Source: Dehalococcoidia bacterium
GTDB taxonomy: Bacteria; Chloroflexota; Dehalococcoidia; DSTF01; WHTK01
NCBI GenBank assembly: GCA_965197795.1
Contig: OZ240228.1
Coordinates: 1,529,898-1,593,897, forward strand
Reading direction: 5' to 3'
DNA: 64,000 bases
Shown: piece by piece, positions 1,376-47,185 of the stretch
Position numbering within the stretch: position 1 is the stretch's first letter
Layout: the number at the start of each line of letters is the position of its first letter
Translations under genes and position numbers: made by a program
Notes under the pieces: generated by a model
What the model saw: only the letters and a program-made list of their open reading frames with translations
Database searches by the model: none
What the model was told of the DNA's origin: nothing

Positions 1376-4300
1376 ATGGGTGGCTTCCTCAGCGTCATCC
1401 CGATAGTCGTCAGGCGCGTCAGGGCTAACGTCCGCTTGCTCTTCGCGGTCGTCATCGGCGCGGTGCTCGCCGCGGCGCTTCTGTCGACCACGTCGATCTA
1501 CACCGACGCTATCCGCGATCTTGGTCTCAAGTTCGCCCTCGGCGACCGCGGCCAGGACGCGATCAACTACCGCCTCGGTAGCACTTCACAGAGCTCTATC
1601 CCGGAGGTCTTCGAGCAGAACCAGGCGTTCATCAAGGAAGCCACCGACGCTTTCCTCGGCCCTTTGGCCAACGGCGAGCCGACGTCGATCGGCAGGAGCG
1701 CCACGTTTTTCCCGACTCTGCCTGGAGGCACGGTATCGGAGAATGACGGCAGGCCGCGAGCCCACTTCACCTTTGTCACAGGCGCCGAGGAACAGATCGA
1801 GCTTGTCGACGGCAGGCTGCCGGACACGGTCTCCGCCATCTCGGGCGCGCCTGAGCTGGAAGTAGCCATCGGCGCTGAGACTGCAGCGCGCCTCGGTATC
1901 GCGCTTGGGGCCGAATACGACCTGCACCCCTTCTGGCGCGACGACGTCGAGCCCGTGTACGTCACTGTCGTAGGTATCGTCCGGGCCAGCGACCCCGAGG
2001 CGGAGTTCTGGGTCAACGAGGACGACGTCTTCAGCGTCCATACGGCGTCATGGGACACAATCCCGATGCTGATCTCGAAGGACACCTTCTTCGCCGCCCT
2101 GTCGGCTTACCTGCCGAACATGGTCAACGACTACAAGACGCTGATCTACGTCGACACCGGCGCGATTAACGCGGGCAACGCCGACACGGTCTCGATCGCT
2201 CTGCGGCGGTTCGACAGCACGATCCGTAACAACGTCGTCCGGACCGCGGTCGAATCTGAGCTACCGGACGTCCTCGCGACGTACGACGAGAAGCTTTTCT
2301 TCACGCGCATACCGTTGCTCGTCCTCGTGCTGCAGATCGCCGCCATTGTCCTGTACTACCTCTTCATGGTCTCAACCATGCTCATCGAGCGCCAAGGGGG
2401 AGAGATCGCGCTGCTCAAGAGCCGCGGCGCCACCACCGCCCAAGTCATGAAGATCTACGTTATCGAGGGCCTGGCGATATCCGGCATTGCCATCCTGGCG
2501 GGCCCGCCGTTGGCCGCGACTGTCATCAGCTTCCTGGGCCAGACGCCGCCATTTACGGACCTGACGGGCGGTTCCAACTTGCGGGTCACGCTGTCTGCCG
2601 GCGCCTACCTCTGGGCCGCCGCCGGCGCGCTGCTCGCCTTCGTGACGCTGCTGCTGCCGGCGTACGTGGCGACCCGGAATACCATCGTCAATCAGCGAGC
2701 CGGCAGCTCCCGGCCTACCCGGCAGCCGTTCTTCATGCGCTACTACCTCGACCTCGGACTCGCCGCGGCGGGTGGCGTGCTGCTCTACCAGCTCGACCGG
2801 CGTGGCAGCCTGGTCACGGAAGGCTTCTTCGGCGACCGCTCCGTCGACCCGGTCCTGCTGCTGGCGCCCGCGTTCTTCATCCTGACCGTGGGGATCGTCT
2901 TCCTGCGCACGTTCCCGCTCGTGCTGCGCCTGCTCACCTGGGCCGTCGCGCGGGCCCAGGGCGCCGCCGTCATCATCGGCATGTGGCAGTTGGTGCGGAA
3001 CCCAGTACACTACTCACGCTTGGTCCTGCTGTTGATGCTGGCGACCGCCGTAGGCATGTTCGCCGCCAGCTTCGGCGCCTCGCTTGACACCAGCTACACC
3101 GACCGCGCCCGCTTCGAGTCCGGTTCGCAGCTGAGCCTGACCGACGTCCGCATAGTGCCAGGGCCCGGGCCTTTCGACACGGCGCAAACCGTGGCCGGCC
3201 TCACAGGCGCCAGTCAGGGCACCGCGGTTTACCGGTTGCAAGGCAGCCAGGGCCCACTCACGTCGCGTCAGACCGTCGAATTCCTCGGCGTGGATAGCGA
3301 AACCTTCGCCGAGATCGCCTACTTCCGTGAGGACTTCGCGGATCAAACGCTCCCAGAGCTCATGGACAAGATCAGCCACGGACGGCCCTCGACGCTCGGC
3401 GTAACGTTGCCGGCCGACGCGCGCTGGCTCGGGATCTGGATCGACCCGGTCGACATGCCGAGTGAGTTCAGCCTTCGCTTCGAGGCGATCGACGCCACAG
3501 GGCGTTACTTCAGCTATCTGCTCGGCCCGGACTTCGTCGAGGAGATGCCGCCAGGTTGGCATCTGCTCGTTTCGGACCTCCAACGTCCCGGCGTCTTTTT
3601 CGGCGAACGCCGCTTCCGCGGCGGGAGCCTGAGACTCAATAACGGTCCCTTCCCTGTGCTCGAGCCTCAGATGCCGATCACCATCACATCGATAACCCTG
3701 CGCTCCCCGACCCGCTTCGCGGCGCCCGCCGGCACCATCGTGTTCGACGATCTGCACGCGAGCAGCGCCGCGCAGCTCGACCCGGACCTCATGCAGGCGA
3801 AGCGCCTCTTCGACCCGCAACGCGCCATCGGGGGGTTGCCCGACGCCGTACATCTCGTGGATTTCGACGGCGTGGCTGACTGGGTCCCGCTGGACGGCCT
3901 GCTGGCCAACCCGCTCAACGACGAAATCCGGACGGTGGCGCGCGACAGCCACGCCGGTATCGAACTGAGCTGGGAGCCGCAACCGGGTCAAATTACAGCG
4001 CACGGACTCCAGTTCGCCGGCACGCTTGACACCATCCCCGTGCTCGCCAGCGAGGGGTTCCTCAGGAACAGCGGCCTCCAGGTCGGAGACACCACGACCG
4101 TGTTCAGCAGCAGCCTCTACCTCGACGTCGTCATAGCGGGCGCCTATGACCTCTTCCCCACGCTGGGCGATTCCCGAGAGCAGCCCTCTCTGATCGGCGA
4201 CGGACCCACGCTCGCGGCCTCCCTCAACGCGAATCCGTCCGGGCCCCTTAGGTACCCGGACGAAATCTGGCTGCAAGGCGGCGACGCGACTCTGGAGGCG

Positions 4301-4822
4301 ATCCGCGGGCTGAGCGAGGAAGGCGCGCTGCTGGGCGGCATTAGCAGCTTTGATGAGCTCCAGGCGGCGCAACAAAGCGATCCGCTCGTCGCGGCCGGCT
4401 GGGAGGGAATCCTCTTCATCAGCTTCGCCGCAATTCTGCTCCTCAGCGCCATCGGCTTCTTGATCTACTCCTACCTGACGGCGCAGCGTCGAACGTTGGA
4501 GTTCGCGGTGCTGCGCACGATGGGGTTCTCGAAGCCGCAGATCGCGGCCCTCGTCGGCTTCGAGCAGATTTTTGTCATCGGACTCGGGATGATCGCCGGC
4601 ACGCTGCTGGGCATGCGCCTCGGCAGCCTCATGATCCGTTACATGGGGATCACGGAGACCGGTGAGGAAGTCTTACCACCGATGCTGCTCGAGATCAGTT
4701 GGTTCACGGTTGGCATGGCATGGCTGGTCCTCGGCCTTGTGTTCCTTGTCACGATCGGCGCCGTCGTCTTACTCTACTCACGCCTTGCTCTGCATCGCGT
4801 ACTCCGAATCGGCGAGACATAG
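1376..4822 (+). CDS. ABC transporter permease with two FtsX domains and large extracytoplasmic loops (MacB/FtsX-like)
   Basis: In-frame ATG at 1376 inside the 584..4822 ORF; the first 264 codons of that ORF are antisense to polA. Two FtsX-like 4-TM blocks (LVLVLQIAAIVLYYLFMV... and ILLLSAIGFLIYSYLTAQRRTLEFAVLRTMGFSKPQIAALVG...) with long soluble inserts. Followed directly by two ABC ATPase genes. Confidence 0.8.
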   Translation: MGGFLSVIPIVVRRVRANVRLLFAVVIGAVLAAALLSTTSIYTDAIRDLGLKFALGDRGQDAINYRLGSTSQSSIPEVFEQNQAFIKEATDAFLGPLANGEPTSIGRSATFFPTLPGGTVSENDGRPRAHFTFVTGAEEQIELVDGRLPDTVSAISGAPELEVAIGAETAARLGIALGAEYDLHPFWRDDVEPVYVTVVGIVRASDPEAEFWVNEDDVFSVHTASWDTIPMLISKDTFFAALSAYLPNMVNDYKTLIYVDTGAINAGNADTVSIALRRFDSTIRNNVVRTAVESELPDVLATYDEKLFFTRIPLLVLVLQIAAIVLYYLFMVSTMLIERQGGEIALLKSRGATTAQVMKIYVIEGLAISGIAILAGPPLAATVISFLGQTPPFTDLTGGSNLRVTLSAGAYLWAAAGALLAFVTLLLPAYVATRNTIVNQRAGSSRPTRQPFFMRYYLDLGLAAAGGVLLYQLDRRGSLVTEGFFGDRSVDPVLLLAPAFFILTVGIVFLRTFPLVLRLLTWAVARAQGAAVIIGMWQLVRNPVHYSRLVLLLMLATAVGMFAASFGASLDTSYTDRARFESGSQLSLTDVRIVPGPGPFDTAQTVAGLTGASQGTAVYRLQGSQGPLTSRQTVEFLGVDSETFAEIAYFREDFADQTLPELMDKISHGRPSTLGVTLPADARWLGIWIDPVDMPSEFSLRFEAIDATGRYFSYLLGPDFVEEMPPGWHLLVSDLQRPGVFFGERRFRGGSLRLNNGPFPVLEPQMPITITSITLRSPTRFAAPAGTIVFDDLHASSAAQLDPDLMQAKRLFDPQRAIGGLPDAVHLVDFDGVADWVPLDGLLANPLNDEIRTVARDSHAGIELSWEPQPGQITAHGLQFAGTLDTIPVLASEGFLRNSGLQVGDTTTVFSSSLYLDVVIAGAYDLFPTLGDSREQPSLIGDGPTLAASLNANPSGPLRYPDEIWLQGGDATLEAIRGLSEEGALLGGISSFDELQAAQQSDPLVAAGWEGILFISFAAILLLSAIGFLIYSYLTAQRRTLEFAVLRTMGFSKPQIAALVGFEQIFVIGLGMIAGTLLGMRLGSLMIRYMGITETGEEVLPPMLLEISWFTVGMAWLVLGLVFLVTIGAVVLLYSRLALHRVLRIGET

Positions 4823-4825
4823 ACC

Positions 4826-5740
4826 GTGACAAGGAATATTGACGAGCCGCTCACCGGCGGCTCCGAGCCCTACATCCTCTGCGAAGACCTCTTCAAGATT
4901 TACAAGCTGGAAGACCTTGAAGTCGTCGCGCTGCGTGGCCTCGATCTCAAGGTGCAGCGCGGCGAGCTCATGGCGATCGTCGGCGCGTCCGGTTCCGGCA
5001 AGTCGACCCTGCTCAACATCCTCGCTGGACTCGCTGTGCCAAGCGCCGGCCGTTGCCTGGCTGGCGGACGTAACCTGCTGACCATGACGCCCGGCGATCT
5101 GGTTACCTATCGCCGCAACGAGGTCGGCTTCGTCTGGCAGCAGACATCCCGTAATCTTCTGCCTTACCTGACGGCAGTCCAGAACGTTGAGCTGCCGATG
5201 ATTCTCGAGGGCGGTGAACCCGGCCCTTCGCGCAGCCGCGCCCACGAACTGCTCGAGATGGTCGGCCTCAGCGATCGTAGCGACGTGGCGCCGGACCGCC
5301 TCTCCGGCGGCGAGCAGCAGCGCGTCGCCATCTCGGTGGCGCTGGCCAACGACCCGCCTCTGCTGCTGGCCGACGAACCCACAGGCGAGCTCGATTCCCA
5401 GACCGCCACTGAGGTATTCGATGTGTTCCGCGGCCTCAACGCAGAACTTGGCGTCACCATCGTCGTCGTCACGCACGACCCGGCCATCGCGAACCAGATC
5501 GACCGCGTCGTCGCGATTCGGGACGGCCGCATCAGCACCGAGAGCTTCCGCCGCGTCTCGTTCCAGGGCCGCGAATCCTACGTCTACCACGACGAATACG
5601 CCGTCGTGGACCGCTCCGGCCGCCTGCAGATCCCAAAGGAGTATCTCGAGCGCCTCGATATCAAGGAGCGAGCGCGCCTCGAGCTCGCCGAGGGCATGGT
5701 CGAGGTCTTGCCTGAAGACGCTCCAGGGGAGGAAACATGA
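4826..5740 (+). CDS. ABC transporter ATP-binding protein (MacB/LolD-type) with ~80-aa C-terminal extension
   Basis: Walker A GASGSGKST, signature LSGGEQQRVAI, Walker B LLLADEPTGELD. Starts 4 nt after the permease stop. Confidence 0.9.
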   Translation: MTRNIDEPLTGGSEPYILCEDLFKIYKLEDLEVVALRGLDLKVQRGELMAIVGASGSGKSTLLNILAGLAVPSAGRCLAGGRNLLTMTPGDLVTYRRNEVGFVWQQTSRNLLPYLTAVQNVELPMILEGGEPGPSRSRAHELLEMVGLSDRSDVAPDRLSGGEQQRVAISVALANDPPLLLADEPTGELDSQTATEVFDVFRGLNAELGVTIVVVTHDPAIANQIDRVVAIRDGRISTESFRRVSFQGRESYVYHDEYAVVDRSGRLQIPKEYLERLDIKERARLELAEGMVEVLPEDAPGEET

Positions 5741-6639
5741 CGGCCAGCGGCAGCAGCGAGCCGCTGGTCCGCGTCGAAAGCCTCAGCCGCACCTTCGAGG
5801 TCGGCAGCCAGACGATCAACGCGTTGAAAGACGTGACGTTCGACGTCTCAGCCGGCGAGTTCGTTGCGGTGATCGGCCGCTCTGGTTCGGGAAAAACGAC
5901 CCTGCTCAACGTTATCGCCGGCCTCGATCACCCGTCCAGCGGACACGTTTACATTGCTGGAGAGGACGTCTCAACCATGACGGATTCGCAGCTCACCAAG
6001 CTGCGGCGTCATCAGCTGGGCTTCGTCTTCCAGTCTTTTGGCCTGCTGCCGTTGCTCTCTGCCTACGAGAACGTCGAAGTCGCCCTGCGGATCGCCGGCG
6101 CGCCGATTCGCGAGCGTGGACGCCGCGTCCGCGAGCTGCTCGACCTGGTGGGGCTCGAAAGGCGTTCACACCACCGGCCTTACGAGCTCTCCGGCGGCGA
6201 GCAACAGCGCGTCGCGATCGCCCGCGCCCTCGCCAACCGACCGCCGCTGATCCTGGCCGACGAACCGACCGGCGAGCTGGACTCCACCACGGCCACGCAA
6301 ATCTTCCAGCTCTTGCTCGACGTCATCGACCAGGAAGGCGTCACCGTCATCACGACGACGCACGACCGCATCGTCATGGAGAAGGCGCACCGCGTCATCG
6401 AGCTTGCGGACGGGGAGCTGCAAACCGGGCCGACTTACTTCGAACGCGACCGCAAAGAGGCCGTCGCGGTGCCTTGGCAACCTCCGGCAGGCGCAGATGC
6501 TCGTAGGCCCGCCGGCGCGGACCAACCCGAGGCCGACGACGCTGGTGGGGAAGCCGTACGGCGAGGTTGGCGCCGTCCAGCGCCGCAGGAACGGCGCGCG
6601 CCATACACGCCGCCTCCGTCGCCCTGTGAACCCTTGTGA
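5737..6639 (+). CDS. second ABC transporter ATP-binding protein; C-terminal ~70 aa low-complexity and uncertain
   Basis: GRSGSGKTT, LSGGEQQRVAIARAL, ILADEPTGELD. ATGA start/stop overlap with the upstream ATPase (translational coupling). The tail after ...ELADGELQTG has lower GC3. Confidence 0.85.
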   Translation: MTASGSSEPLVRVESLSRTFEVGSQTINALKDVTFDVSAGEFVAVIGRSGSGKTTLLNVIAGLDHPSSGHVYIAGEDVSTMTDSQLTKLRRHQLGFVFQSFGLLPLLSAYENVEVALRIAGAPIRERGRRVRELLDLVGLERRSHHRPYELSGGEQQRVAIARALANRPPLILADEPTGELDSTTATQIFQLLLDVIDQEGVTVITTTHDRIVMEKAHRVIELADGELQTGPTYFERDRKEAVAVPWQPPAGADARRPAGADQPEADDAGGEAVRRGWRRPAPQERRAPYTPPPSPCEPL

Positions 6640-39270: not shown

Positions 39271-40799
39271 ACCCAACCCGTGTGCCAGTCGACGGCGACG
39301 CCGTCCGGATAGCCCATGTCGATCCTGTCGCCGATGATGCCACCGCCCGTGTCTCCCGCCACAGCGAAGCCGTAGCCAGGAACGTAGAGGCGCGTGCCCA
39401 GAGGGATCACGTTCGGGTCCACCGCCACGATGCCCTTGGTCAGCGGAACGCCAGATCGAGTGATGCCGTACGCGGGGTGTGTGGCCGGCTTACCTGAACT
39501 GGCAGCGTTGTACCACGTCGCGTACATGCGCATCGTGCTCGCAACCTTCAGATTGTCCGCTGCGTCGGTCGAATTGACCGCCGAAGCCGAGTAGTAGATC
39601 ACGGTATTAACCGGCTCGGGATCGAAGGACTCGGCGACAAATACGCGCTCGATTTCGACACCGTCCTCGATAACGATCTCGTACTCCATGATACGCACGC
39701 CGTCGTGACCCTCGATGCGGCGAGTCTGAGGACCGGTCAGCGAATCGTCAGGGCTGAATACTGTTATGTGGATCACGTCCTCGCGTTCGAAGAACGCCTG
39801 ACCCGTCACGCGCACAATCCTCGCGACCATATCGTTGGTCACGGCGACACTCAGCGCCGGTTCTACGCGGTCGTCCGGTCCGAACCTGTAGCCGGCTTCG
39901 AGCAAGGCTGCTTCCAGCGTCTCTGCCTGGGAGTAGATGACCTGTGATTGCTCACCCAAGCGCAAGTGGATCGCCTTGGCATGGCTGACCTCGATCTGCA
40001 TGCCTGCGTTCAGTCCCGTGGCTTCCGGCGGGAACACCTTGTCGGCGGGACCCAGGCTAATTCCAACCTCGATCAGGACGTCTTTTACGGTCTCGACGCT
40101 GGTCTGTAGCGTCACGGGACGGCCGTCCTCGACCAGGGTCACAGGCACGGCGCGCTTGATGTCAATGATGATGCCCTGCACGTCCCCCGGGGTCTCGTTG
40201 TAGATACCAAAGCTGCCTAGAGATGAGGTGTTGATCGGCGTCGGGTAGATGGGATCGGTAACCGCGACGCGCAGGCCGTTGTAGTAAATCGCGTCGTGCG
40301 GACTGACATCGATTCGGAGCTCGCGCAGAAGACCTTCGACGCTAATCGCGCGCGTGCGCCAAGCCATCGTCACCCCATCGAACTCGACGACGACCGGGAT
40401 GGCGCGTTCGACCGTGATCCCGTTGCTGGAGACCACAAATACATCGCCCGGGTCGCGATCGACGCCCGCCGAACCCAGTAGCGTCGCGATGTCCTGCTGC
40501 CGGCTCACCACCGTTATTGCCCTGCCGTCCGCCTGCACCAGCAGTTCGCGGGGTGGAAAGACCAGAAACGCCAGCATTCCGGCAATGGCCAGCGTGGCTA
40601 TCAAGGCCAGGCGGAGACGGGCGCGTGTCGTATTGAGGTGCCGGACTTCGACGTTGGGAAAACGAGATAGAGGACGAGCCCCGGCACGCAGGCGCAAGCT
40701 TGGTAGCCAGTACGCCAAACGCTCCCTCCTTGGACTTGGTCCCGGTCTCAGAGCGTCTCGCCCTGAGTTGGTCGTGCACCCGCTGTCGATCCGGTTCAC
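39249..40799 (-). CDS. YabE-like cell-wall protein (N-terminal TM, DUF348/G5-like repeats, C-terminal 3D domain)
   Basis: GTG start. The C-terminus (MYATWYNAASSGKPATHPAYGITRSGVPLTKGIVAVDPNVIPLGTRLYVPGYGFAVAGDTGGGIIGDRIDMGY) is a 3D/RlpA-like domain. Confidence 0.8.
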   Translation of the reverse strand: MNRIDSGCTTNSGRDALRPGPSPRRERLAYWLPSLRLRAGARPLSRFPNVEVRHLNTTRARLRLALIATLAIAGMLAFLVFPPRELLVQADGRAITVVSRQQDIATLLGSAGVDRDPGDVFVVSSNGITVERAIPVVVEFDGVTMAWRTRAISVEGLLRELRIDVSPHDAIYYNGLRVAVTDPIYPTPINTSSLGSFGIYNETPGDVQGIIIDIKRAVPVTLVEDGRPVTLQTSVETVKDVLIEVGISLGPADKVFPPEATGLNAGMQIEVSHAKAIHLRLGEQSQVIYSQAETLEAALLEAGYRFGPDDRVEPALSVAVTNDMVARIVRVTGQAFFEREDVIHITVFSPDDSLTGPQTRRIEGHDGVRIMEYEIVIEDGVEIERVFVAESFDPEPVNTVIYYSASAVNSTDAADNLKVASTMRMYATWYNAASSGKPATHPAYGITRSGVPLTKGIVAVDPNVIPLGTRLYVPGYGFAVAGDTGGGIIGDRIDMGYPDGVAVDWHTGWVDVFILE

Positions 40800-40859
40800 T
40801 GGCTTGCCGCCGCTCGACAGCTCAGGCCAGGTTTTCCTACGGCGCCCGAAGATGTCTAC

Positions 40860-41045
40860 TTACCGCTGCTTCCTTCCGGATCTGACGGGGTTCAGCAGTT
40901 CCTCGCCGCGTAGGGCCAAGCCATCAACACCGCGTAGTTTTGGCAGTCCCCGTTAGCCAGACCTCGAGCGGGAATTCGACCCCGCTATAGCGGGTTGCGG
41001 GTACAGGGCACCGCTAGCTCCCCGTCTAGCACGACCGTGCGAATC
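40860..41045 (-). ncRNA. candidate ydaO-type (cyclic-di-AMP) riboswitch in the 5' leader of the YabE-like gene
   Basis: The minus-strand leader contains GACGGGGAGC, GCGGGGUCGAAUUCCCGC (compare ACGGGGUGAAUCC), AACGGGGACUGCC and AACCCCGUCAGAUCCGGAAGGAAGCAGC (compare CACCC..CCCGAAGGAAC). It is preceded by TTGACC...GATAGGAT promoter-like sequence near 41050-41075. By-eye match only. Confidence 0.35.
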
Positions 41046-41094
41046 CTATCACAAGCACGTCTGCCTGGGTCAAGGAATCGGCGTTGCGGAAACG

Positions 41095-41499
41095 CTACGA
41101 CTGACCTGTGCTGCGTAGTTCGCGCATCGCGCGCAGCGCGACGTGGTGGCCAAGCGTGAAGATCAGCAGCGCACCCAGGACGTGCATGGACCCGAGGAAC
41201 TCATCCTCGAACTCGGTAACCCAGAAAGGCTGAACCAGCGACAGGATCGCCAACGCCAAGGCCAGGAACAACGTCACGCGCCCCACCTTGGCCAGGTAGG
41301 CAACGATCAGGATCAAGACGGGCGTGGCGTGCAACGCGGCCCAGCCGAATCCCCGATGCAGCTCCCAATCTTCACCCCCCAGCAACGCCAGGCCGGCGAA
41401 GAAGAACTGCAGCACCACGCCCAGCAGGAATAGCAATGACACGATAACCAGGATCCGTCTGGCAGCCAGCAACCTCGCCTCCCTACCCTGGGGCCACAT
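41095..41499 (-). CDS. hypothetical membrane protein (4 TM)
   Basis: ORF with hydrophobic helices. Overlaps the hydrolase stop by 17 nt, so the start may be further downstream. Confidence 0.5.
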   Translation of the reverse strand: MWPQGREARLLAARRILVIVSLLFLLGVVLQFFFAGLALLGGEDWELHRGFGWAALHATPVLILIVAYLAKVGRVTLFLALALAILSLVQPFWVTEFEDEFLGSMHVLGALLIFTLGHHVALRAMRELRSTGQS

Positions 41500-42307
41500 T
41501 GGCCCGTAGCCAATCGTCGACTCGGGGAGCCGTGGCGGCCACGGCTGCGCCGTGACAAACGATACCCCAATGGCCCGTCTGTGGCACGGCCAACGCGTCG
41601 CCTGCCAGGTATATCGCCAGGCTTCGATGGTACTCAGGCGCGAAGTTCGCGTCCTGTTCCCCGAACACGACCAACGATGGCGCCTTCACGGCTCCGGGCT
41701 CCAAGGACACGCCGCGTCGCCGCTGCCTTCGGGCCATGCCGCTCTCCTCGGTGCCGCGCACCCGCTCGAGCACACCGTGAGCTTCGTCCTCGCTGAGATC
41801 GTGCAAAGCTTGACGTGAGGCGGCAGGGTCGTCCGGATGCAGTCCGTACACCTCCGGGCCGAACGGCCCGGAGGGCGTCGACCGTACAACCTCGGGGTCA
41901 GCGCGACCAGTCACCTCGGCGGGTGGGCTCGGCGCGAAGAGCAGCAGTCCTGGAACCTCTGGTTGGTTTGCGCCGTACATCATCGCCACCAGGCCGCCCA
42001 TAGCCCAACCGCCGACGATCGGCTGGCGCCCCCGCGCCTGGGCGATCTGGTCTGCCACCGATTCGACGTCCGCGACGTAATCCTGCATCGTGATGATAGA
42101 GAAATCGACCGGTAAACTGTGGCCGTGACCGCGCAAATCGAGCACGTTGACTTCCCAGCCAAGGGTGCCCAGGTGCTCCCGCCAGAGGTCCCAGATCCAG
42201 GCTGCGGTGATGCCGCCGTGTACCAGTAAGATCGACGGATACGCCACGTCTTGCTCCCGATCTTTCATCGAATAAGGCACGTCTATCTGACCGCTGATTT
42301 CGTACAA
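41483..42307 (-). CDS. alpha/beta hydrolase fold protein
   Basis: ILLVHGG...HGHS nucleophile-elbow pattern (GWAMGG). Confidence 0.8.
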   Translation of the reverse strand: MYEISGQIDVPYSMKDREQDVAYPSILLVHGGITAAWIWDLWREHLGTLGWEVNVLDLRGHGHSLPVDFSIITMQDYVADVESVADQIAQARGRQPIVGGWAMGGLVAMMYGANQPEVPGLLLFAPSPPAEVTGRADPEVVRSTPSGPFGPEVYGLHPDDPAASRQALHDLSEDEAHGVLERVRGTEESGMARRQRRRGVSLEPGAVKAPSLVVFGEQDANFAPEYHRSLAIYLAGDALAVPQTGHWGIVCHGAAVAATAPRVDDWLRANVAPG

Positions 42308-42483
42308 CTCTCAGGCGAATCCGGGTAGTGGGTCAGTTTGAGGCTGGAGGGCTTCGGCTTCTGCTGCTTGCTAGGAGTAGGCATCATACCCTTAATGCCA
42401 TTAGGACGGGTGTTTGAGTTGTGTAGCGTTGTCGTTAGTACCTATACTCCCCCTAGTCAAACCTTGCACATGGAGAAGGAAAC

Positions 42484-43825
42484 ATGAGCACGGCTAACCG
42501 ACTCTACTTTGGCGACTGCCTCGACGTGATGCGGGAGAATCTCCCCAGTGAGTCCGTGGACCTTATCTATCTAGACCCACCATTCAACTCCAAGCGGCTC
42601 TACAACGCCTTTATAGGTGGAGCGCAGTGGGTAGCTTTTGACGACACCTGGCGTTGGCATGAGGCCGTGGACGATTTTCACGAGGTTGCAAGGCTACCTA
42701 GCTATGCTGGCCTCATGGAAGGATTGCGGTCGATGCTGGGAGAAGGACCGCAGTTAGCCTATCTGTCCTACATGGCTAACCGCCTGCTTGAGTGTCGCCG
42801 GGTACTCAAGCCAACCGAGTCTATCTACCTGCATTGCGATCCGACAATGAGCCACTACCTCAAGGCCGTTATGGACGGGCTGTTTGAGCGTCGTAACTTC
42901 ACTAATGAGGTTGTCTGGCATTATCGCAAGTGGTCAGCAGGTAAGTACACATTCCAGCGGAACCATGACGTTATTCTGTTCTACACAAAAACCTCAACTC
43001 GTGAGCGTGTCTTTAATCAGCAGTTTATGCCTCGGGCAGAATCAACTCTCAAACGTTTTGGCAAGGCCAAAATCGTATCTGGCTACGATGAAATGGGCCA
43101 ACGATTACCTTCTCAAGTTGAAGATAAAGAATCTGAAGGGGTACACCAAGACGACGTATGGGACATCAATCGAGTGCCACCTGTTCAACAGTTATACCCC
43201 ACACAAAAGCCCATATCTCTATTAGAGCGGATCATCCAAGCAAGCTCCAACCCTGGCGATGTAGTCCTTGACCCGTTTTGCGGATGCGGGACAGCGATTC
43301 ACGCGGCACAGAACCTTGACCGACACTGGATCGGAATAGACATTTGCGTCAACGCCTGCAAGGTTATCGAAGAACGCATTAAGGGCCACTTTGACAGCCT
43401 GTGGTCTGAGGTGGAATTCGTAGGACTGCCCAAGACCCGCGACGATGCTCAGTTTATGGCTTCCAGCAACCCGTTCCGCTTTGAGCGCTGGGCAGCCTCC
43501 CTTGTGGACGGCATGGAGGCCAACAAGAAGCAACGGGGGGGACAGCGGGATAGACGGCTGGGGGCGCATTCCGGTGAAGACGGGTGAGTTCATAGACGTG
43601 GTCTCACAAGTCAAGGGTGGAACGACCAGCCCGGGACACGTCCAGGCGTTCAACGGGGCGCGGCAACAAGCCGGAGCGGACCTGGGAGTGTTCACCTGCT
43701 TTGAAGGCCGCGTGACCACGGGAATGCGCAACACTGGTTTATTCATGGATGCGCCAGTAGTCCAGATTTACACCGTGGAAGACTACTTTGAAGGCCGTAG
43801 ACCCAAGCTGCCATTAGCGGTATAG
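42484..43825 (+). CDS. beta-class N6A/N4C DNA methyltransferase fused to C-terminal Mrr-like (PD-(D/E)xK) domain; frame broken at a G7 tract. As sequenced, MTase-only product ends at 43587
   Basis: Motif IV IYLDPPFNS is N-terminal and motif I VLDPFCGCGTAIHAA is C-terminal, the beta-class order. In frame +1 from 43536 the sequence continues ...DSGIDGWGRIPVKTGEFIDVVSQVKGG...GADLGVFTCFEGRVTTGMRN, which resembles the Mrr catalytic domain. Removing one G from GGGGGGG (43535-43541) would give a continuous ~447-aa fusion. Local GC ~50%. Confidence 0.7.
43535..43541 (+). repeat. G7 homopolymer at the MTase / Mrr-domain junction (possible slipped-strand switch or sequencing error)
   Basis: Seven consecutive G exactly at the point of the reading-frame change. 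Confidence 0.9.
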
Positions 43826-44027
43826 CCGATGCCATGTCCCGTCTATCTTGCTTGCCCAGGTTCAGCGGGAAAAGTTGGCGGCGTCAAAATGACCCACTAC
43901 CCGAATCCGGGGCTTGTTGACACCACTTATGCCCTATGCTACGTTGCCGCCGCTGGCGGCCCCTTCGGGGGATTCGCTGTATTATGGATGTTGGGATTGC
44001 TGGCGACGCCTACTCGTTGGTGTTCAT

Positions 44028-44103
44028 GGGCCGCTAGCTCAAATGGAAGAGCAGGTGACTCTTAATCACCCGGTTCCCGGTTCGAGTCCGGGGCGGCTCA
44101 CCA
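44028..44103 (+). tRNA. tRNA-Lys (anticodon CTT)
   Basis: Cloverleaf folded by hand: acceptor GGGCCGC/GCGGCTC, D arm GCTC...GAGC, anticodon stem GGTGA/TCACC with loop CTCTTAA, T arm CCCGG-TTCGAGT-CCGGG, encoded CCA. Confidence 0.85.
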
Positions 44104-44137
44104 AGACTAGCAACAAGCCGGTGAAATATGCCGGCGA

Positions 44138-44222
44138 GGGGAAGTGTCGGAATTGGTAGACGAGCATGACTTAGGATCATGTGCCGCGAGGCGTAGGAGT
44201 TCGAGTCTCCTCTTCCCCACCA
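44138..44222 (+). tRNA. tRNA-Leu (anticodon TAG), type II with long variable arm
   Basis: Acceptor GGGGAAG/CTTCCCC, anticodon stem CATGA/TCATG with loop CTTAGGA, 13-nt variable arm, T arm AGGAG-TTCGAGT-CTCCT, encoded CCA. Confidence 0.85.
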
Positions 44223-44307
44223 CCTCGCATTCAGTCGGCTTAGGGGCCGCGGGAGCTACTCAGCCTGCGGCGCGTACGAAACTCCTTAACGGGATGAAGG
44301 GGGAGTA

Positions 44308-45306
44308 ATGCCGCCACTGCTGCAGGTTAAGGACTTAAGGACCTACTTCTACACCGAAGAAGGTCTGGTCAAGGCCGTAGATGGAGTCACGTATGACGTC
44401 CAGGAAGGCGAAACCCTCGGCCTGGTCGGCGAGAGCGGTTGCGGCAAGAGCATCAGCGCCCTCTCTCTGCTCAAGCTGATCCCGGTCCCGCCCGGCCGCA
44501 TCGTTTCTGGCGAGGTCCTCTTCGAAGGCGACGACCTCCTCAAGCTCGACGAATCCCAGATCCGCAAGATCCGCGGCAACCGCATTTCGATGGTGTTCCA
44601 GGAGCCGATGACTTCACTGAACCCGGTCCTCACCATCGGCAAGCAAATGACCGAAGCGCTTGAGCTGCACCTCAAGCTGGACCGTAAGGCGGCGAACGCA
44701 CGTGCCGTCCAGCTGCTCGAGATGGTCGGGGTCGCCGAGGCCGGGCGTCGCATCACGGACTATCCGCACCAATTCTCCGGCGGCATGCGACAGCGGGTCA
44801 TGATCGCCATGGCCATGGCATGCAACCCGAGGCTTCTCATCGCCGACGAGCCCACGACGGCGCTCGACGTCACGATTCAGGCGCAGGTCCTCGAAGTCAT
44901 GGCGCGTCTTAGCCACGAGTTCGGCACGGCGGTCATCATCATCACCCACAACCTCGGCGTCGTCGCCCGTTACGCCGACCGCGTCAACGTCATGTACGCG
45001 GGCAGGATCATCGAGACCTCCACCGCCGAGAACGTCTACGGTGACCCGCGACATCCCTACACCCTGGGATTGCTGCGCTCCGTACCGCGCCTCGACCAGG
45101 GAATGGGCGAGAAACTAATCCCAATCGAAGGTCTGCCACCGGATCTGGGGCATCTGCCGGAAGGCTGCACCTTCTATCCGCGCTGCACCTTCCGCATCGA
45201 TAAGTGCCGCGAGGAGTATCCGCCGCTGGTGCTTGTCGCTGAGAATCATTATGCCGCCTGCTGGGTGGACGTGACGGAGCAGAAGGGGGCCGAGAATGGT
45301 AACTGA
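44308..45306 (+). CDS. oligopeptide/dipeptide ABC transporter ATP-binding protein (OppD/DppD-like)
   Basis: [23 protein letters not shown]-terminal oligopeptide-ABC extension (CTFYPRC...C). Confidence 0.9.
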
Positions 45307-46315
45307 GACGGCAGGAGCACCGGGCGGCGGGACGCAGGCTTCAGAGGATCTCCTACTCGACTTACAGGACCTGCAGGTCCACTTCCCGGTCATGGCCGGC
45401 TTCATCGTTTCGCGCAGAGTCGCGGAGAACAAAGCGGTGGACGGAATCACGTTCAACGTCAAGCGCGGCGAGACCGTCGGCCTTGTCGGCGAAAGTGGCT
45501 GCGGCAAGTCAACCACCGGTCGCGCGATCCTTCAGCTCTATAAGCCTACCAGCGGCCGCGTCCTCTTCGACGGCAGGGACATGGCTGAACTGCATGGTGA
45601 AGAGCTGCGGCGGACTCGCCGCCGAATGCAGATGATTTTTCAGGACCCCTACGCTTCCTTGAATCCTCGCATGTCGATTCGCGACATCGTTGGTGAGCCG
45701 CTGATGATTCACAAACTCGGCACCTCTGCCGAGCGACGCGAACGGGTCGCCGAGTTGATGCGCATCGTCGGCCTCAACCCGTACTACGCGACGCGCTTCC
45801 CGCACGAGTTCTCTGGCGGCCAGCGACAGCGCATCGGCATCGCCCGAGCACTGGCCGTCTCGCCTGACTTCATCGTCTGTGACGAGCCCGTGTCTGCTCT
45901 CGATGTATCGATTCAGGCTCAGATCATCAACCTGCTGGAGGAACTGCAGGAGCAGTTCGGCCTGACGTATCTCTTCATAGCCCACGATCTTGCTGTCGTT
46001 CGCCACATCAGCGACCGCGTCGCGGTGATGTATCTCGGTAAGCTGATGGAGTTGTCAGACCGCAACGAGATCTACGACAACCCGCTGCACCCCTACACCA
46101 AGGCACTTCTCTCAGCCGTGCCGATTCCCGACCCGGTTATGGAGCGCAAGCGTGAACGGATCATTCTTACCGGTGACGTTCCCAGCTCCCTGCGTCCGCC
46201 GCGCGGCTGCGTCTTCCACACCCGTTGCCCGATCGCCATCGATGAATGTCGTGAAGTCATACCGGAGTGGCGTGAAGTACAGCCAGGCCACCGGGTAGCC
46301 TGCCATCGGGTCTAG
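45296..46315 (+). CDS. oligopeptide/dipeptide ABC transporter ATP-binding protein (OppF/DppF-like)
   Basis: [25 protein letters not shown]-terminal Cys motif ([14 protein letters not shown]). Confidence 0.9.
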
Positions 46316-46357
46316 CTGCTTCGCTCCGGCAAGCCAACGAAAGCGACTCCGCCGTCC

Positions 46358-47185
46358 GTGAGTGACATCCATACCTTCGATCCCTTCGCCAAGGAGCCGG
46401 CGTACATCCGCGTCAATGAACGGCTCATTGACCGCGTGATGAAGCACCTCGCGGGCGCCAGGACCATCCGGCTGCTTGAGGTGGCCGCGGGCACCGGCCT
46501 GCCCACGGCGCTGATGTACAAGCGAGCCCGGGAGACCGGCGTCAAGCTCGTCGCCACGCTCCTCGATCTCGACCTGCCTGCCCTTTATCAGGCCAAGATC
46601 GAGGTCGACGAAGACAACGCGAACTATGTCTACGGCTCCGCCTACGCGCTCCCCTTCGGCGAGCAAGGCTACGACGCGGTGTTCTTCGCCAACGGTCTGC
46701 ACTTGCTGGACGCTGAGGCCAAACGAGATGCGCTCAAGGAAAGCAACCGCGTACTCAAACCCGGCGGGCTTTTCGCCATGAACACCACGTTTTACGACGG
46801 CGCCTACCCGGAGGAGAGCAAGCCCTTCTACGGCCGCTGGATCCGTCGCTCGATCGTCGAGATCAACCAACGTCTTCCGGGCCGCGATAAGAGCGAGAAG
46901 GTTCAAGCTATGGAGTTCCTCACGGCCGACAACTATCGCGACCTGGTCAACGAAGCCGGCTTCGAGATCGTCGAATCGCGCGAGCGCCGCGTCATGCTAA
47001 GCCAGGCCGCGGTGCGTGCCATCAGCTCCTACAAGGACTTCGCGATGGGCGCTCTGCACGCAACCGAGGAAGACGCTGAGCAGGCCGCCGGATCGCTTCA
47101 GGCTACGGTACGTCAGACCTTCCACGACCTGCAGATGAAGTACCTGCCGCGCACCTGGCTGGAGATCGTTGCAGTCAAGGCCTGA
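46358..47185 (+). CDS. class I SAM-dependent methyltransferase
   Basis: GTG start. LLEVAAGTG motif I; LKPGGLFAM. Confidence 0.7.
   Translation: MSDIHTFDPFAKEPAYIRVNERLIDRVMKHLAGARTIRLLEVAAGTGLPTALMYKRARETGVKLVATLLDLDLPALYQAKIEVDEDNANYVYGSAYALPFGEQGYDAVFFANGLHLLDAEAKRDALKESNRVLKPGGLFAMNTTFYDGAYPEESKPFYGRWIRRSIVEINQRLPGRDKSEKVQAMEFLTADNYRDLVNEAGFEIVESRERRVMLSQAAVRAISSYKDFAMGALHATEEDAEQAAGSLQATVRQTFHDLQMKYLPRTWLEIVAVKA

Follow-up and report, generated by a model that had tools for sequence, protein, structure and literature searches.

A transposed IS1-related cassette carries a frameshifted DNA methyltransferase-nuclease fusion gene in a Dehalococcoidia genome

Introduction

How does a single gene of deviating base composition come to stand directly upstream of a tRNA pair, and what does a run of seven guanines do inside it? 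These questions are raised by a locus in a stretch of 64,000 nucleotides from a Dehalococcoidia bacterium (contig OZ240228.1, positions 1,529,898 to 1,593,897), hereafter the window. The gene encodes a DNA methyltransferase whose nuclease-like C-terminus is reached only after a change of reading frame. A first interpretation made without database searches (the sequence-only reading) took the locus for a candidate mobile module with a phase-variable switch. Here, we find that the low-GC islet is a recent, strain-level transposition insertion beside the tRNA pair. Judging by its ends, the inserted cassette derives from an IS1-related insertion-sequence family. We consider it likely that the passenger gene of this recently transposed cassette is now nuclease-dead and methylase-intact. 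The guanine run itself is probably a real, fixed and recent frameshift.

Borders of the cassette and the empty target site

The inserted unit is a non-autonomous cassette of 1578 bp (42324..43901, plus strand) with one passenger gene and without a transposase. Its left end is the 21-nt terminal inverted repeat GGTAGTGGGTCAGTTTGAGGC (42324..42344, plus strand), of which positions 42324-42341 form an 18-nt core conserved in a wider element family. The right terminal inverted repeat (43881..43901, minus strand) has the reverse complement GGTAGTGGGTCATTTTGACGC. The two arms are complementary at 19 of 21 bases, rising to 25 of 29 for 42316-42344 versus 43881-43909, where the quasi-palindromic duplication is included. 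None of 500 shuffles reached this inverted-repeat score with separated arms. In the 29-nt repeat, the outermost 8 nt (CGAATCCG; left copy 42316..42323, right copy 43902..43909) are repeated directly, and the inner 21 nt, GGTAGTGGGTCA[G/T]TTTGA[G/C]GC, are inverted. Such an arrangement predicts a transposon with an 8-bp target-site duplication. We take the duplication as 8 bp, although it could formally be 8-10 bp since GG comes next. Neither the inverted repeats nor the duplication had been recognized in the sequence-only reading.

The prediction was tested through genomes sharing the neighboring hydrolase gene. A sister strain with a circular 3.03-Mb contig (locus L008; ERZ26167216, contig ctg495765) encodes a hydrolase 99% identical to the one in the window, and its flanks match the window at 99.5% identity over 8255 nt, with 41 substitutions and no indels. 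At the insertion point, the sister strain reads ...CTCTCAGG CGAATCCG GGGCTTGTTGACA..., so that the 8-mer found twice in the window is present once. The site is also empty in four related species-level genomes (L009-L012). The spacing from the hydrolase gene to the ABC gene is 2060 nt in the window versus 474 nt in L008-L012, and the difference of 1586 nt equals the 1578-bp element plus 8 bp. The cassette interpretation thus withstood two attempts at refutation: the sister genome has a clean single CGAATCCG, and the ends are shared with transposase-bearing elements. A mobile module beside the tRNA pair had been suspected from the start, together with a proposal to look for the islet in related genomes, and the empty sites settle the matter. 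The islet was correctly described as a segment with one gene, with its size now 1578 bp plus the 8-bp duplication rather than about 1.7 kb. Insertion into a pre-existing hairpin loop was considered as well, and is ruled out by the empty site, which has a single CGAATCCG and no palindrome.

The composition of the islet is distinct. Its GC content is 54.0% (52% in the methyltransferase part) compared to a mean of 64.5% in the 64-kb window, and no other 1.7-kb stretch of the window is as low (about 4 standard deviations under the mean). The initial description of a low-GC islet therefore stands, though not the values of about 50% against about 67%.

The only substantial open reading frame (ORF) of the cassette is the methyltransferase gene. 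Searches by blastx, and by tblastn with the transposases of sibling elements, found no transposase or transposase remnant in the cassette. Subterminal similarity to the sibling elements ends 23-38 nt from the cassette ends. Because neither a transposase nor a remnant is present, the unit fits the definition of a mobile insertion cassette (MIC; PMC4337579). The 21-nt repeats stand at both ends, their 18-nt core also bounds transposase-bearing elements, no transposase is found inside, and the target duplication is matched by an empty site in a relative.

Parent element family

Further element ends were collected by exact-match scans for the 21-mer in metagenomes and for the 18-mer in IMG/VR. They yielded at least 120 metagenome stretches with the 21-mer end and at least 120 viral contigs with the 18-mer. 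Among the fetched loci are 81 complete elements, ranging from 36 bp to 4.8 kb. Perfect identical 8-bp flanks surround 42 of the 81, and several others have flanks that differ by one or two bases. A DDE transposase of 280-305 aa, with its stop codon inside the terminal repeat, is encoded by 30 elements. Another 8 of the 81 hold transposase remnants, 10 are cargo-only and 33 have the size of miniature inverted-repeat transposable elements. The first 18 nt are invariant across 293 distinct ends from other loci with divergence beyond, a pattern biased by the exact-match scans.

The transposases of these sibling elements match the NCBIfam IS1 model NF033558 best (E = 1e-18 and 4e-15), with 56-68 bits, which is under the cutoff of 100. 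Matches to IS1595 and IS6 are weaker, and the Pfam models DDE_Tnp_IS1 and IS240 match weakly. Plasmid homologs with 49-55% identity to the sibling transposases carry the PGAP name "IS1 family transposase". Target duplications of the IS1 family are 8-9 bp long, and the duplication is 8 bp in the window, in 42/81 siblings and in a copy from Mesorhizobium loti described below. The sibling transposases are encoded in a single ORF, and the two-ORF InsA/InsB organization of classical IS1 with its programmed -1 frameshift was not found in them; single-ORF subgroups of IS1 exist. Both cassette ends have GGTAGTG and so fit GGnnnTG. Such termini are a hallmark of IS1/IS6 and are not exclusive to IS1 (PMC6807381). 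IS1595 was also considered as the parent family, as hinted by an IS1595 transposase beside the closest relative of the passenger gene (L003) and by the 8-bp duplication. We rejected this candidate for the cassette, since the sibling transposases match IS1 best.

The M. loti element is a complete copy of 3370 bp on plasmid p_1 of M. loti 582 (CP050295.1 470343-473712; L312:4344-7713). It has perfect 18-nt ends and an 8-bp duplication, CGCTGGTG. It carries an IS1-family transposase along with genes annotated as histone H1, hypothetical protein and helix-turn-helix (HTH)-domain protein. The record of the plasmid does not annotate it as a mobile element. Elsewhere, the cargo of sibling elements includes P63C and HTH-ImmA/IrrE proteins, and two elements (L177 and L203) hold homologs of the methyltransferase-nuclease fusion itself, at 33-40% identity.

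At the lower end of the size range are mini-elements of little beyond two abutting 18-nt repeats, namely L173:6179-6214 (36 bp), L034:416-484 (69 bp) and L209:852-1004 (153 bp). Perfect 8-bp duplications flank them (GGTCGCTG, TCCCTGCG and GACATTTC, respectively). The 36-bp element would approach the smallest possible transposable unit. Element ends are also very frequent in the IMG/VR contigs classed as viral (L134-L253), where HTH-ImmA/IrrE (Peptidase_M78) and P63C-domain proteins recur as cargo. Either these insertion sequences are often present in (pro)phage genomes, or many of these contigs are non-viral.

The passenger gene and its product

As assembled, the passenger ORF (42484..43587, plus strand) encodes 367 aa, comprising a complete beta-class methyltransferase, Mrr Motif I and 14 out-of-frame residues. 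Deleting one G from the tract yields a 446-aa product with its stop codon at 43823-43825, and adding one G yields 356 aa. The run of seven guanines (G7) at 43535-43541 and the 367-aa product had been correctly identified by the sequence-only reading, as had the fusion with six guanines (G6), for which about 447 aa had been given. Pfam analysis of the conceptual G6 fusion bears out the proposed methyltransferase with DPPF and FCGCG and the Mrr-like C-terminus (N6_N4_Mtase and Mrr_cat). The N6_N4_Mtase domain (PF01555) covers residues 25-296 (E = 6.7e-45; 154 bits versus a cutoff of 26.7), and the match is complete, from profile position 1 to 220 of 221. DPPF at residues 31-34 and FCGCG at residues 264-268 place motif IV before motif I, which is the beta-class order. 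The methylase part matches the solved structures of M.RsrI, M.MboIIA and CcrM. From the DPPF motif, the target is probably N6-adenine. PADLOC recognizes only the methyltransferase of the fusion.

The C-terminal module is an Mrr-type PD-(D/E)XK domain beginning near residue 328. On this part of the conceptual fusion, Mrr_cat scores 24-27 bits (cutoff 21) and NA-iREase1 scores 26-29.5 bits (cutoff 27). A study of LlaGI defined the motifs of the Mrr family as a helix with F-E (I), D-x-G-h-D (II) and Q-x-K (III), with the extra Motif II aspartate being unique to the family (PMC2790908). Cleavage by LlaGI depends on the lysine of Motif III and on the two aspartates of Motif II (PMC2790908). In the window, Motif I (F333-E334 in FERW; 43480..43485, plus strand) is in frame 1, and its F and E are invariant or nearly so in family alignments. 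The remainder of the nuclease domain is encoded by a frame-2 continuation (43541..43825, plus strand). This continuation holds Motif II (D353-x-G-I-D357, as D-S-G-I-D; 43541-43555, plus strand) and Motif III (Q-V-K; 43607-43615, plus strand). Across the family, FERW, GDxGIDG and SQVK are each invariant or more than 90% conserved. The domain has the alpha-beta-beta-beta-alpha-beta fold of PD-(D/E)XK nucleases, with which Foldseek agrees at weak E-values, and the nearest folds are active cleavage domains. Sequence searches against solved structures gave no significant match for the C-terminal domain. The proposed check for a PD-(D/E)XK/Mrr fold was thus passed on both motifs and fold. In intact family members, the Mrr module would cut DNA and the methylase would protect it. 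The methylase of the 367-aa product may be active and may still mark the genome.

Spread and genomic settings of the fusion family

The fusion was searched against 5.8 billion proteins, which returned at least 8000 significant candidates. About 119 of the 120 matches listed are intact fusions of about 440-475 aa with 62-91% identity, nearly all with the same Pfam pair. Both domains, nuclease and methyltransferase, are held by these intact relatives in one polypeptide. An exact match to the 367-aa product came only from the window's own genome in other assemblies (P0015), among the matches listed. The family occurs in 56 species-representative genomes of several phyla, with hosts including Dehalococcoidia, Anaerolineae, Phototrophicaceae, Planctomycetota, Alphaproteobacteria, Acidimicrobiaceae and Tectomicrobia. 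The C-terminal domain, used alone as the query, retrieved nothing beyond fragmentary gene calls of the fusion family, and no new domain partners emerged. The single-chain architecture had been regarded as unusual, a view that the number of candidates and genomes does not sustain and for which LlaGI already provides a precedent. In the literature, we found no description of the fusion protein family or of the element family. The joining of a methylase to an Mrr-type module is no paradox, because the module is a generic cleavage domain already present in single-chain restriction-modification (R-M) enzymes.

No conserved partner gene accompanies the fusion across 51 loci, and the gene is therefore solitary. 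Around 20 loci (L256-L272, L290, L291, L301, L304, L308) have the intact fusion in one conserved neighborhood of Chloroflexota (Anaerolineae, Phototrophicaceae and others). The neighborhood consists of a LacI-type regulator, 6-phosphogluconate dehydrogenase (gnd), the fusion gene, a fatty-acid desaturase and an alcohol dehydrogenase. Such conservation suggests that the solitary gene has long been resident there and vertically inherited.

Other settings involve transposases. In a Dehalococcoidia contig (L254:3060-6451; CAXXCN010000003.1), an 80%-identical homolog has an IS1595-family transposase gene on either side, the two being different and in the same orientation, which resembles a composite transposon. 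IS1595 transposases also adjoin the fusion gene in L003, L269, L270, L273, L278, L292 and L294. Together with the homologs inside the IS1-like elements L177 and L203, these neighbors indicate that the fusion gene has repeatedly been transposon cargo. Repeats of the cassette type were absent around the closest homologs (L003, L004, L006 and L007). Among 60 homolog loci, only a solitary sequence resembling the terminal inverted repeat (L296) and a neighboring related element (L269) were found. The former, GGTAGTGTCTCAGTTTGG (L296:3850-3867), lies upstream of an intact homolog at a distance of 150 nt, and this 535-aa protein is enlarged in its central (target-recognition) region. The geometry of the repeat-like sequence fits the left end in the window, and a right end was not found at this locus. 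The latter is a 2.25-kb element with variant ends, GGTATTGTATCAGTTTGA (L269:603-2869).

Two further settings stand out. On a Dehalococcoidia chromosome (OZ220473.1; L007:3076-6321), the intact homolog P0008, a Uma2-family gene and a 186-aa ORF lie between gcvPA and gcvPB. This islet interrupts the conserved glycine-cleavage operon and is without IS1-like ends. The two closest intact homologs sit in dense R-M islands (L003:8-1854 and 4435-5979; L004:1-4851). The first island contains Type ISP/Eco57I-like fragments, an N6_Mtase, an AAA ATPase and an SNF2 helicase. The second contains several N6_N4 methylases, an HNH protein and a Bpu10I-like endonuclease.

The frameshift and its possible causes

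The G7 tract (43535..43541, plus strand) produces a +1 frame change and falls in codons 351-353, between Motif I and Motif II. Because the Mrr-like match starts near residue 328, the tract lies inside the nuclease domain, after Motif I, and not exactly at the domain junction as originally proposed. The window reads CAACGGGGGGGACAGC at this position, and the relatives L003 and L004 read CGGGGAGAC (CAA CGG GGA GAC GG., Q-R-G-D-G). The CGG GGA GAC of these relatives implies that a synonymous GGA-to-GGG change made G6 and that one G was then gained. All three cassette-bearing assemblies, which come from different samples (the window, L001 and L002), have G7. Between L002 and the window, the only differences are one substitution and a 12-nt indel. 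This indel marks a 12-nt (4-codon) deletion in the window (43728..43729, plus strand) between CAAC direct repeats, where L001 and L002 carry CAACGCTGCGGT. The alignment places the four lost residues after MRN, and they are retained by the rest of the family. The deletion fits a dead nuclease half, as a second, later lesion in the untranslated part. With the frameshift and four deleted codons, the window does not encode the Mrr-family domain in one continuous reading frame.

Long homopolymers are scarce in the window. G7 is the only run of at least 7, and only four runs reach 6 (G6 at 3830, C6 at 36237 and 41375, and G7 at 43535), with no A/T run of at least 6. Base composition predicts about 100 G/C runs of at least 6 and about 33 of at least 7, indicating strong homopolymer avoidance.

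Several points weigh against a trans-mobilized cassette whose gene is nuclease-dead and methylase-intact. No transposase of the cassette's family is encoded within the 64-kb window. The frame-2 continuation extends over 95 codons without a stop. The ratio of nonsynonymous to synonymous substitutions relative to L003 and L004 is 0.41-0.57 downstream of the tract compared to 0.32-0.34 in the N-terminal part. An open frame with a ratio so slightly raised implies that the lesion is very recent, reversible or not real. All three cassette-bearing assemblies were built from long-read metagenomes of low coverage, with 3x and 5x tags in the contig names. The best-scoring C-terminal Pfam model, NA-iREase1, is described as an "inactive" restriction endonuclease (REase). 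The truncated methylase may also need its C-terminal domain for DNA binding, and the whole gene would then be dead.

If the lesion were not real, the true sequence would be G6, the fusion of 446-450 aa would be intact and the extra G would be a long-read homopolymer error. Contig naming and the errors of L001 point to low-coverage long-read metagenome assemblies with 1-nt homopolymer indels. Relative to the window (39484-46587), L001 (ERZ25072670, 3x contig) shows 7 substitutions over 7.1 kb and 13 indels of its own, most of them single-base homopolymer errors. These indels fragment two ABC-transporter genes, and low-coverage long-read contigs can thus create false frameshifts. Fragmentary gene calls of the fusion family are also frequent in the same data source, with break points scattered between residues 215 and 370, and a few are frame-shifted in the same G-rich GDGGIDGWG stretch. 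The fully open downstream frame speaks for an artefact as well. However, G7 is shared by three independent assemblies, whereas the other indels of L001 are private. The comparison of the window to the sister strain L008 yields substitutions and no indels, and the three other 6-mers of the window are located in intact long ORFs. The 12-nt deletion polymorphism is atypical of sequencing error and fits relaxed constraint. Given the 13 indels of L001, a systematic miscall at a true G6 keeps some small weight, and we regard an assembly artefact as unlikely.

A reversible lesion would be a phase-variable switch, with slippage of the tract turning the nuclease on at G6 (full-length methylase-nuclease) and off at G7 (methylase only) within the population. 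Such a switch is what the sequence-only reading had seen as a classic phase-variation arrangement. A homopolymer inside the ORF does set the frame, and G6 restores 446 aa, with the 95 downstream codons open. The tract is also the sole run of its length in a genome strongly avoiding homopolymers, and the substitution pattern downstream is weakly relaxed. Against this, the three assemblies from different samples contain neither G6 nor G8. The tract is not conserved, with close relatives reading CGGGGAGAC and the family remaining intact without it. The downstream domain has lost four codons of conserved length in the window. Moreover, G7 is short for a contingency tract, as characterized poly-G switches usually have at least 8. 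The off state would remove the nuclease only, whereas known phasevarions switch the methylase. No observation made here favors phase variation, which we consider quite improbable. We thus return to a fixed lesion as the preferred reading of G7.

A third explanation concerns the function of the C-terminal domain rather than the tract. The domain could be a DNA-binding, inactive REase-like module needed by the methylase, so that the frameshift would kill the enzyme and leave the cassette an inert, complete pseudogene. CcrM needs its C-terminal domain, and the ranking of NA-iREase1 points in the same direction. The approximately 20 Anaerolineae/Phototrophicaceae genomes that keep the gene between gnd and the desaturase are reminiscent of a resident methylase rather than of a selfish R-M unit. 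In the homolog carried by L203, the Q of Motif III is replaced by S. However, the aspartates of Motif II and the lysine of Motif III that are essential in LlaGI are invariant or nearly so here, likewise the F-E of Motif I and the Q of Motif III. Mrr_cat passes its own threshold, and the nearest folds are active cleavage domains. The methyltransferase domain remains complete in the truncated product. A non-catalytic domain is hence very improbable in our view, and a nuclease lost from a gene with an intact methylase remains the preferred reading.

Genomic surroundings of the insertion

The insertion site is 118 bp upstream of tRNA-Lys, in a promoter-proximal spacer, and 76 bp upstream of the start of the alpha/beta hydrolase gene (41483..42247, minus strand), which flanks the insertion on the other side. 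The genes for tRNA-Lys(CTT) (44028-44103, plus strand) and tRNA-Leu(TAG) (44138-44222, plus strand) are located as initially stated, with the islet directly upstream of the pair (44028-44222). Neither tRNA is split or duplicated by the insertion, and the same pair is present in the empty-site strains. A tRNA-directed integrase island was considered and ruled out: there is no integrase, the tRNAs are intact and no tRNA 3' end is duplicated.

A TTGACA-containing stretch (43917..43945, plus strand) starts 8 bp to the right of the insertion (7 intervening bases) and is conserved in every empty-site relative. The sequence TTGTTGACACCACTTAT.CCTATGCTACGTTGCC is kept in L008, L009 and L010, with one substitution in L010. 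L012 reads ATTGACA at this putative promoter, with the remainder conserved. The stretch is probably the promoter of the tRNA operon, a role that we infer because a strict consensus scan did not call it. The consensus scan of the islet for promoters and terminators found nothing. At the right junction, CGAATCCGGGGC (43902-43913) resembles the T-arm of tRNA-Lys, CGAGTCCGGGGC (44083-44094), at 11 of 12 bases. This is probably a coincidence, because the same 8-mer stands in the empty site.

Proposed history and significance

We suggest that a DDE transposase supplied in trans would have recognized the 18-21-nt terminal inverted repeats (GGTAGTGGGTCAGTTTGA...) of the cassette. This IS1-like transposase would have inserted the 1578-bp unit at CGAATCCG, in the intergenic spacer that separates the hydrolase gene from the putative tRNA-Lys/Leu promoter, duplicating 8 bp. 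The cargo was probably a self-contained methylase-nuclease, in the form of a solitary beta-class methylase of about 450 aa with a C-terminal Mrr-type domain. A synonymous GGA-to-GGG substitution in the window lineage would have created G6, before an extra G shifted the frame. By parting Motif I from Motifs II and III, the frameshift would leave a 367-aa protein whose methyltransferase is intact and whose nuclease is lost. The 4-codon deletion likely followed in the nuclease part, which was no longer translated. Decay of R-M systems usually affects the nuclease first, because an earlier loss of the methylase is lethal if the nuclease is active.

More tentatively, the fusions of about 450 aa could represent an uncharacterized minimal class of single-chain R-M enzymes that are the selfish cargo of IS1-like and IS1595-like transposons. 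The window would then have been caught just after transposition, in the expected first state of decay with the nuclease lost and the methylase kept. The IS1-related family might more generally be a vehicle for small defense or regulatory genes, given its invariant 18-nt end, its forms from 36 bp to 4.8 kb and its abundance in soil, groundwater and "viral" contigs. We see this broader proposal as possible though doubtful.

For this locus, the ends, the target duplication, the empty site, the parent family and the cargo are all resolved, which is rare for R-M-type genes, as their horizontal routes are usually inferred. A common and uncharacterized fusion family is tied to transposon cargo in three independent forms: the IS1-like cassette, IS1-like elements with a transposase or its remnants, and an IS1595 composite. 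The window also provides a natural nuclease-minus allele. If the fusion is indeed a self-contained R-M enzyme of 450 aa, it would constitute a compact new enzyme type and a model of selfish R-M genes riding insertion sequences. Annotations of the gene should record a frameshift rather than phase variation, and the 18-nt end can serve as a probe for a large element family.

Comparison with known systems

The kinds of element involved are already known. As a member of an IS1-related family, the cassette can be classed as a mobile insertion cassette or a transposon-like R-M unit, and its cargo belongs to a common but uncharacterized protein family. Transposon-like R-M units have been described in X. 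oryzae and N. gonorrhoeae, with imperfect inverted repeats, no transposase, an 8-bp duplication and an empty site in a sister genome, and their mobilization in trans was proposed (Furuta, Abe & Kobayashi 2010, PMC2853133). Our cassette is similar to these units in its R-M-type gene, inverted repeats, 8-bp duplication, clean empty site and lack of a transposase. The repeats of the earlier units are unique to each unit and were not linked to a cognate transposase family, whereas the cassette has the ends of a large IS1-related family. It further differs in that its cargo is one fused and frameshifted gene. Other named mobile insertion cassettes are MIC231 of Bacillus cereus and the TnXax1-derived MICs of Xanthomonas (PMC4337579). 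The latter are Tn3-like with 5 bp, in contrast to the IS1-related cassette with its 8-bp duplication. Instead of effectors or resistance genes, the cassette carries a DNA methyltransferase-nuclease fusion.

Among IS1-family insertion sequences of the single-ORF type, the M. loti element is one example with which the cassette shares the identical 18-nt end, the GGTAGTG termini and the 8-bp duplication, although the cassette's own transposase was lost or never present. The sibling elements depart from classical IS1 in their single ORF, in scores of up to 68 bits against the IS1 cutoff of 100, and in the cargo genes that many of them carry.

Regarding the cargo, an Mrr-family nuclease and a methyltransferase in one chain were already known from LlaGI (PMC2790908). 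The Type ISP enzymes LlaGI and LlaBIII are about 1500 aa long and combine an N-terminal nuclease with a superfamily 2 (SF2) helicase motor and a gamma-class methylase. Members of the fusion family have about 450 aa, a C-terminal nuclease, a beta-class methylase and no motor. In known Type IIG enzymes, the nuclease is N-terminal and the methylase is of the gamma class, and the fusion family differs on both counts. The passenger gene is comparable to phasevarions and Type III mod genes in that a simple repeat within a methyltransferase ORF sets the frame. In phasevarions, the tract is shared among strains, its length varies from isolate to isolate and it is the methylase that is switched, whereas the tract in the window is restricted to one lineage, has the same length in all three assemblies and leaves the methylase untouched. 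CcrM (6pbd) is the best sequence match among solved structures, covering the methylase only (residues 235-287). Both CcrM and the fusion are solitary and have a C-terminal addition, which in the fusion is an Mrr-type PD-(D/E)XK domain.

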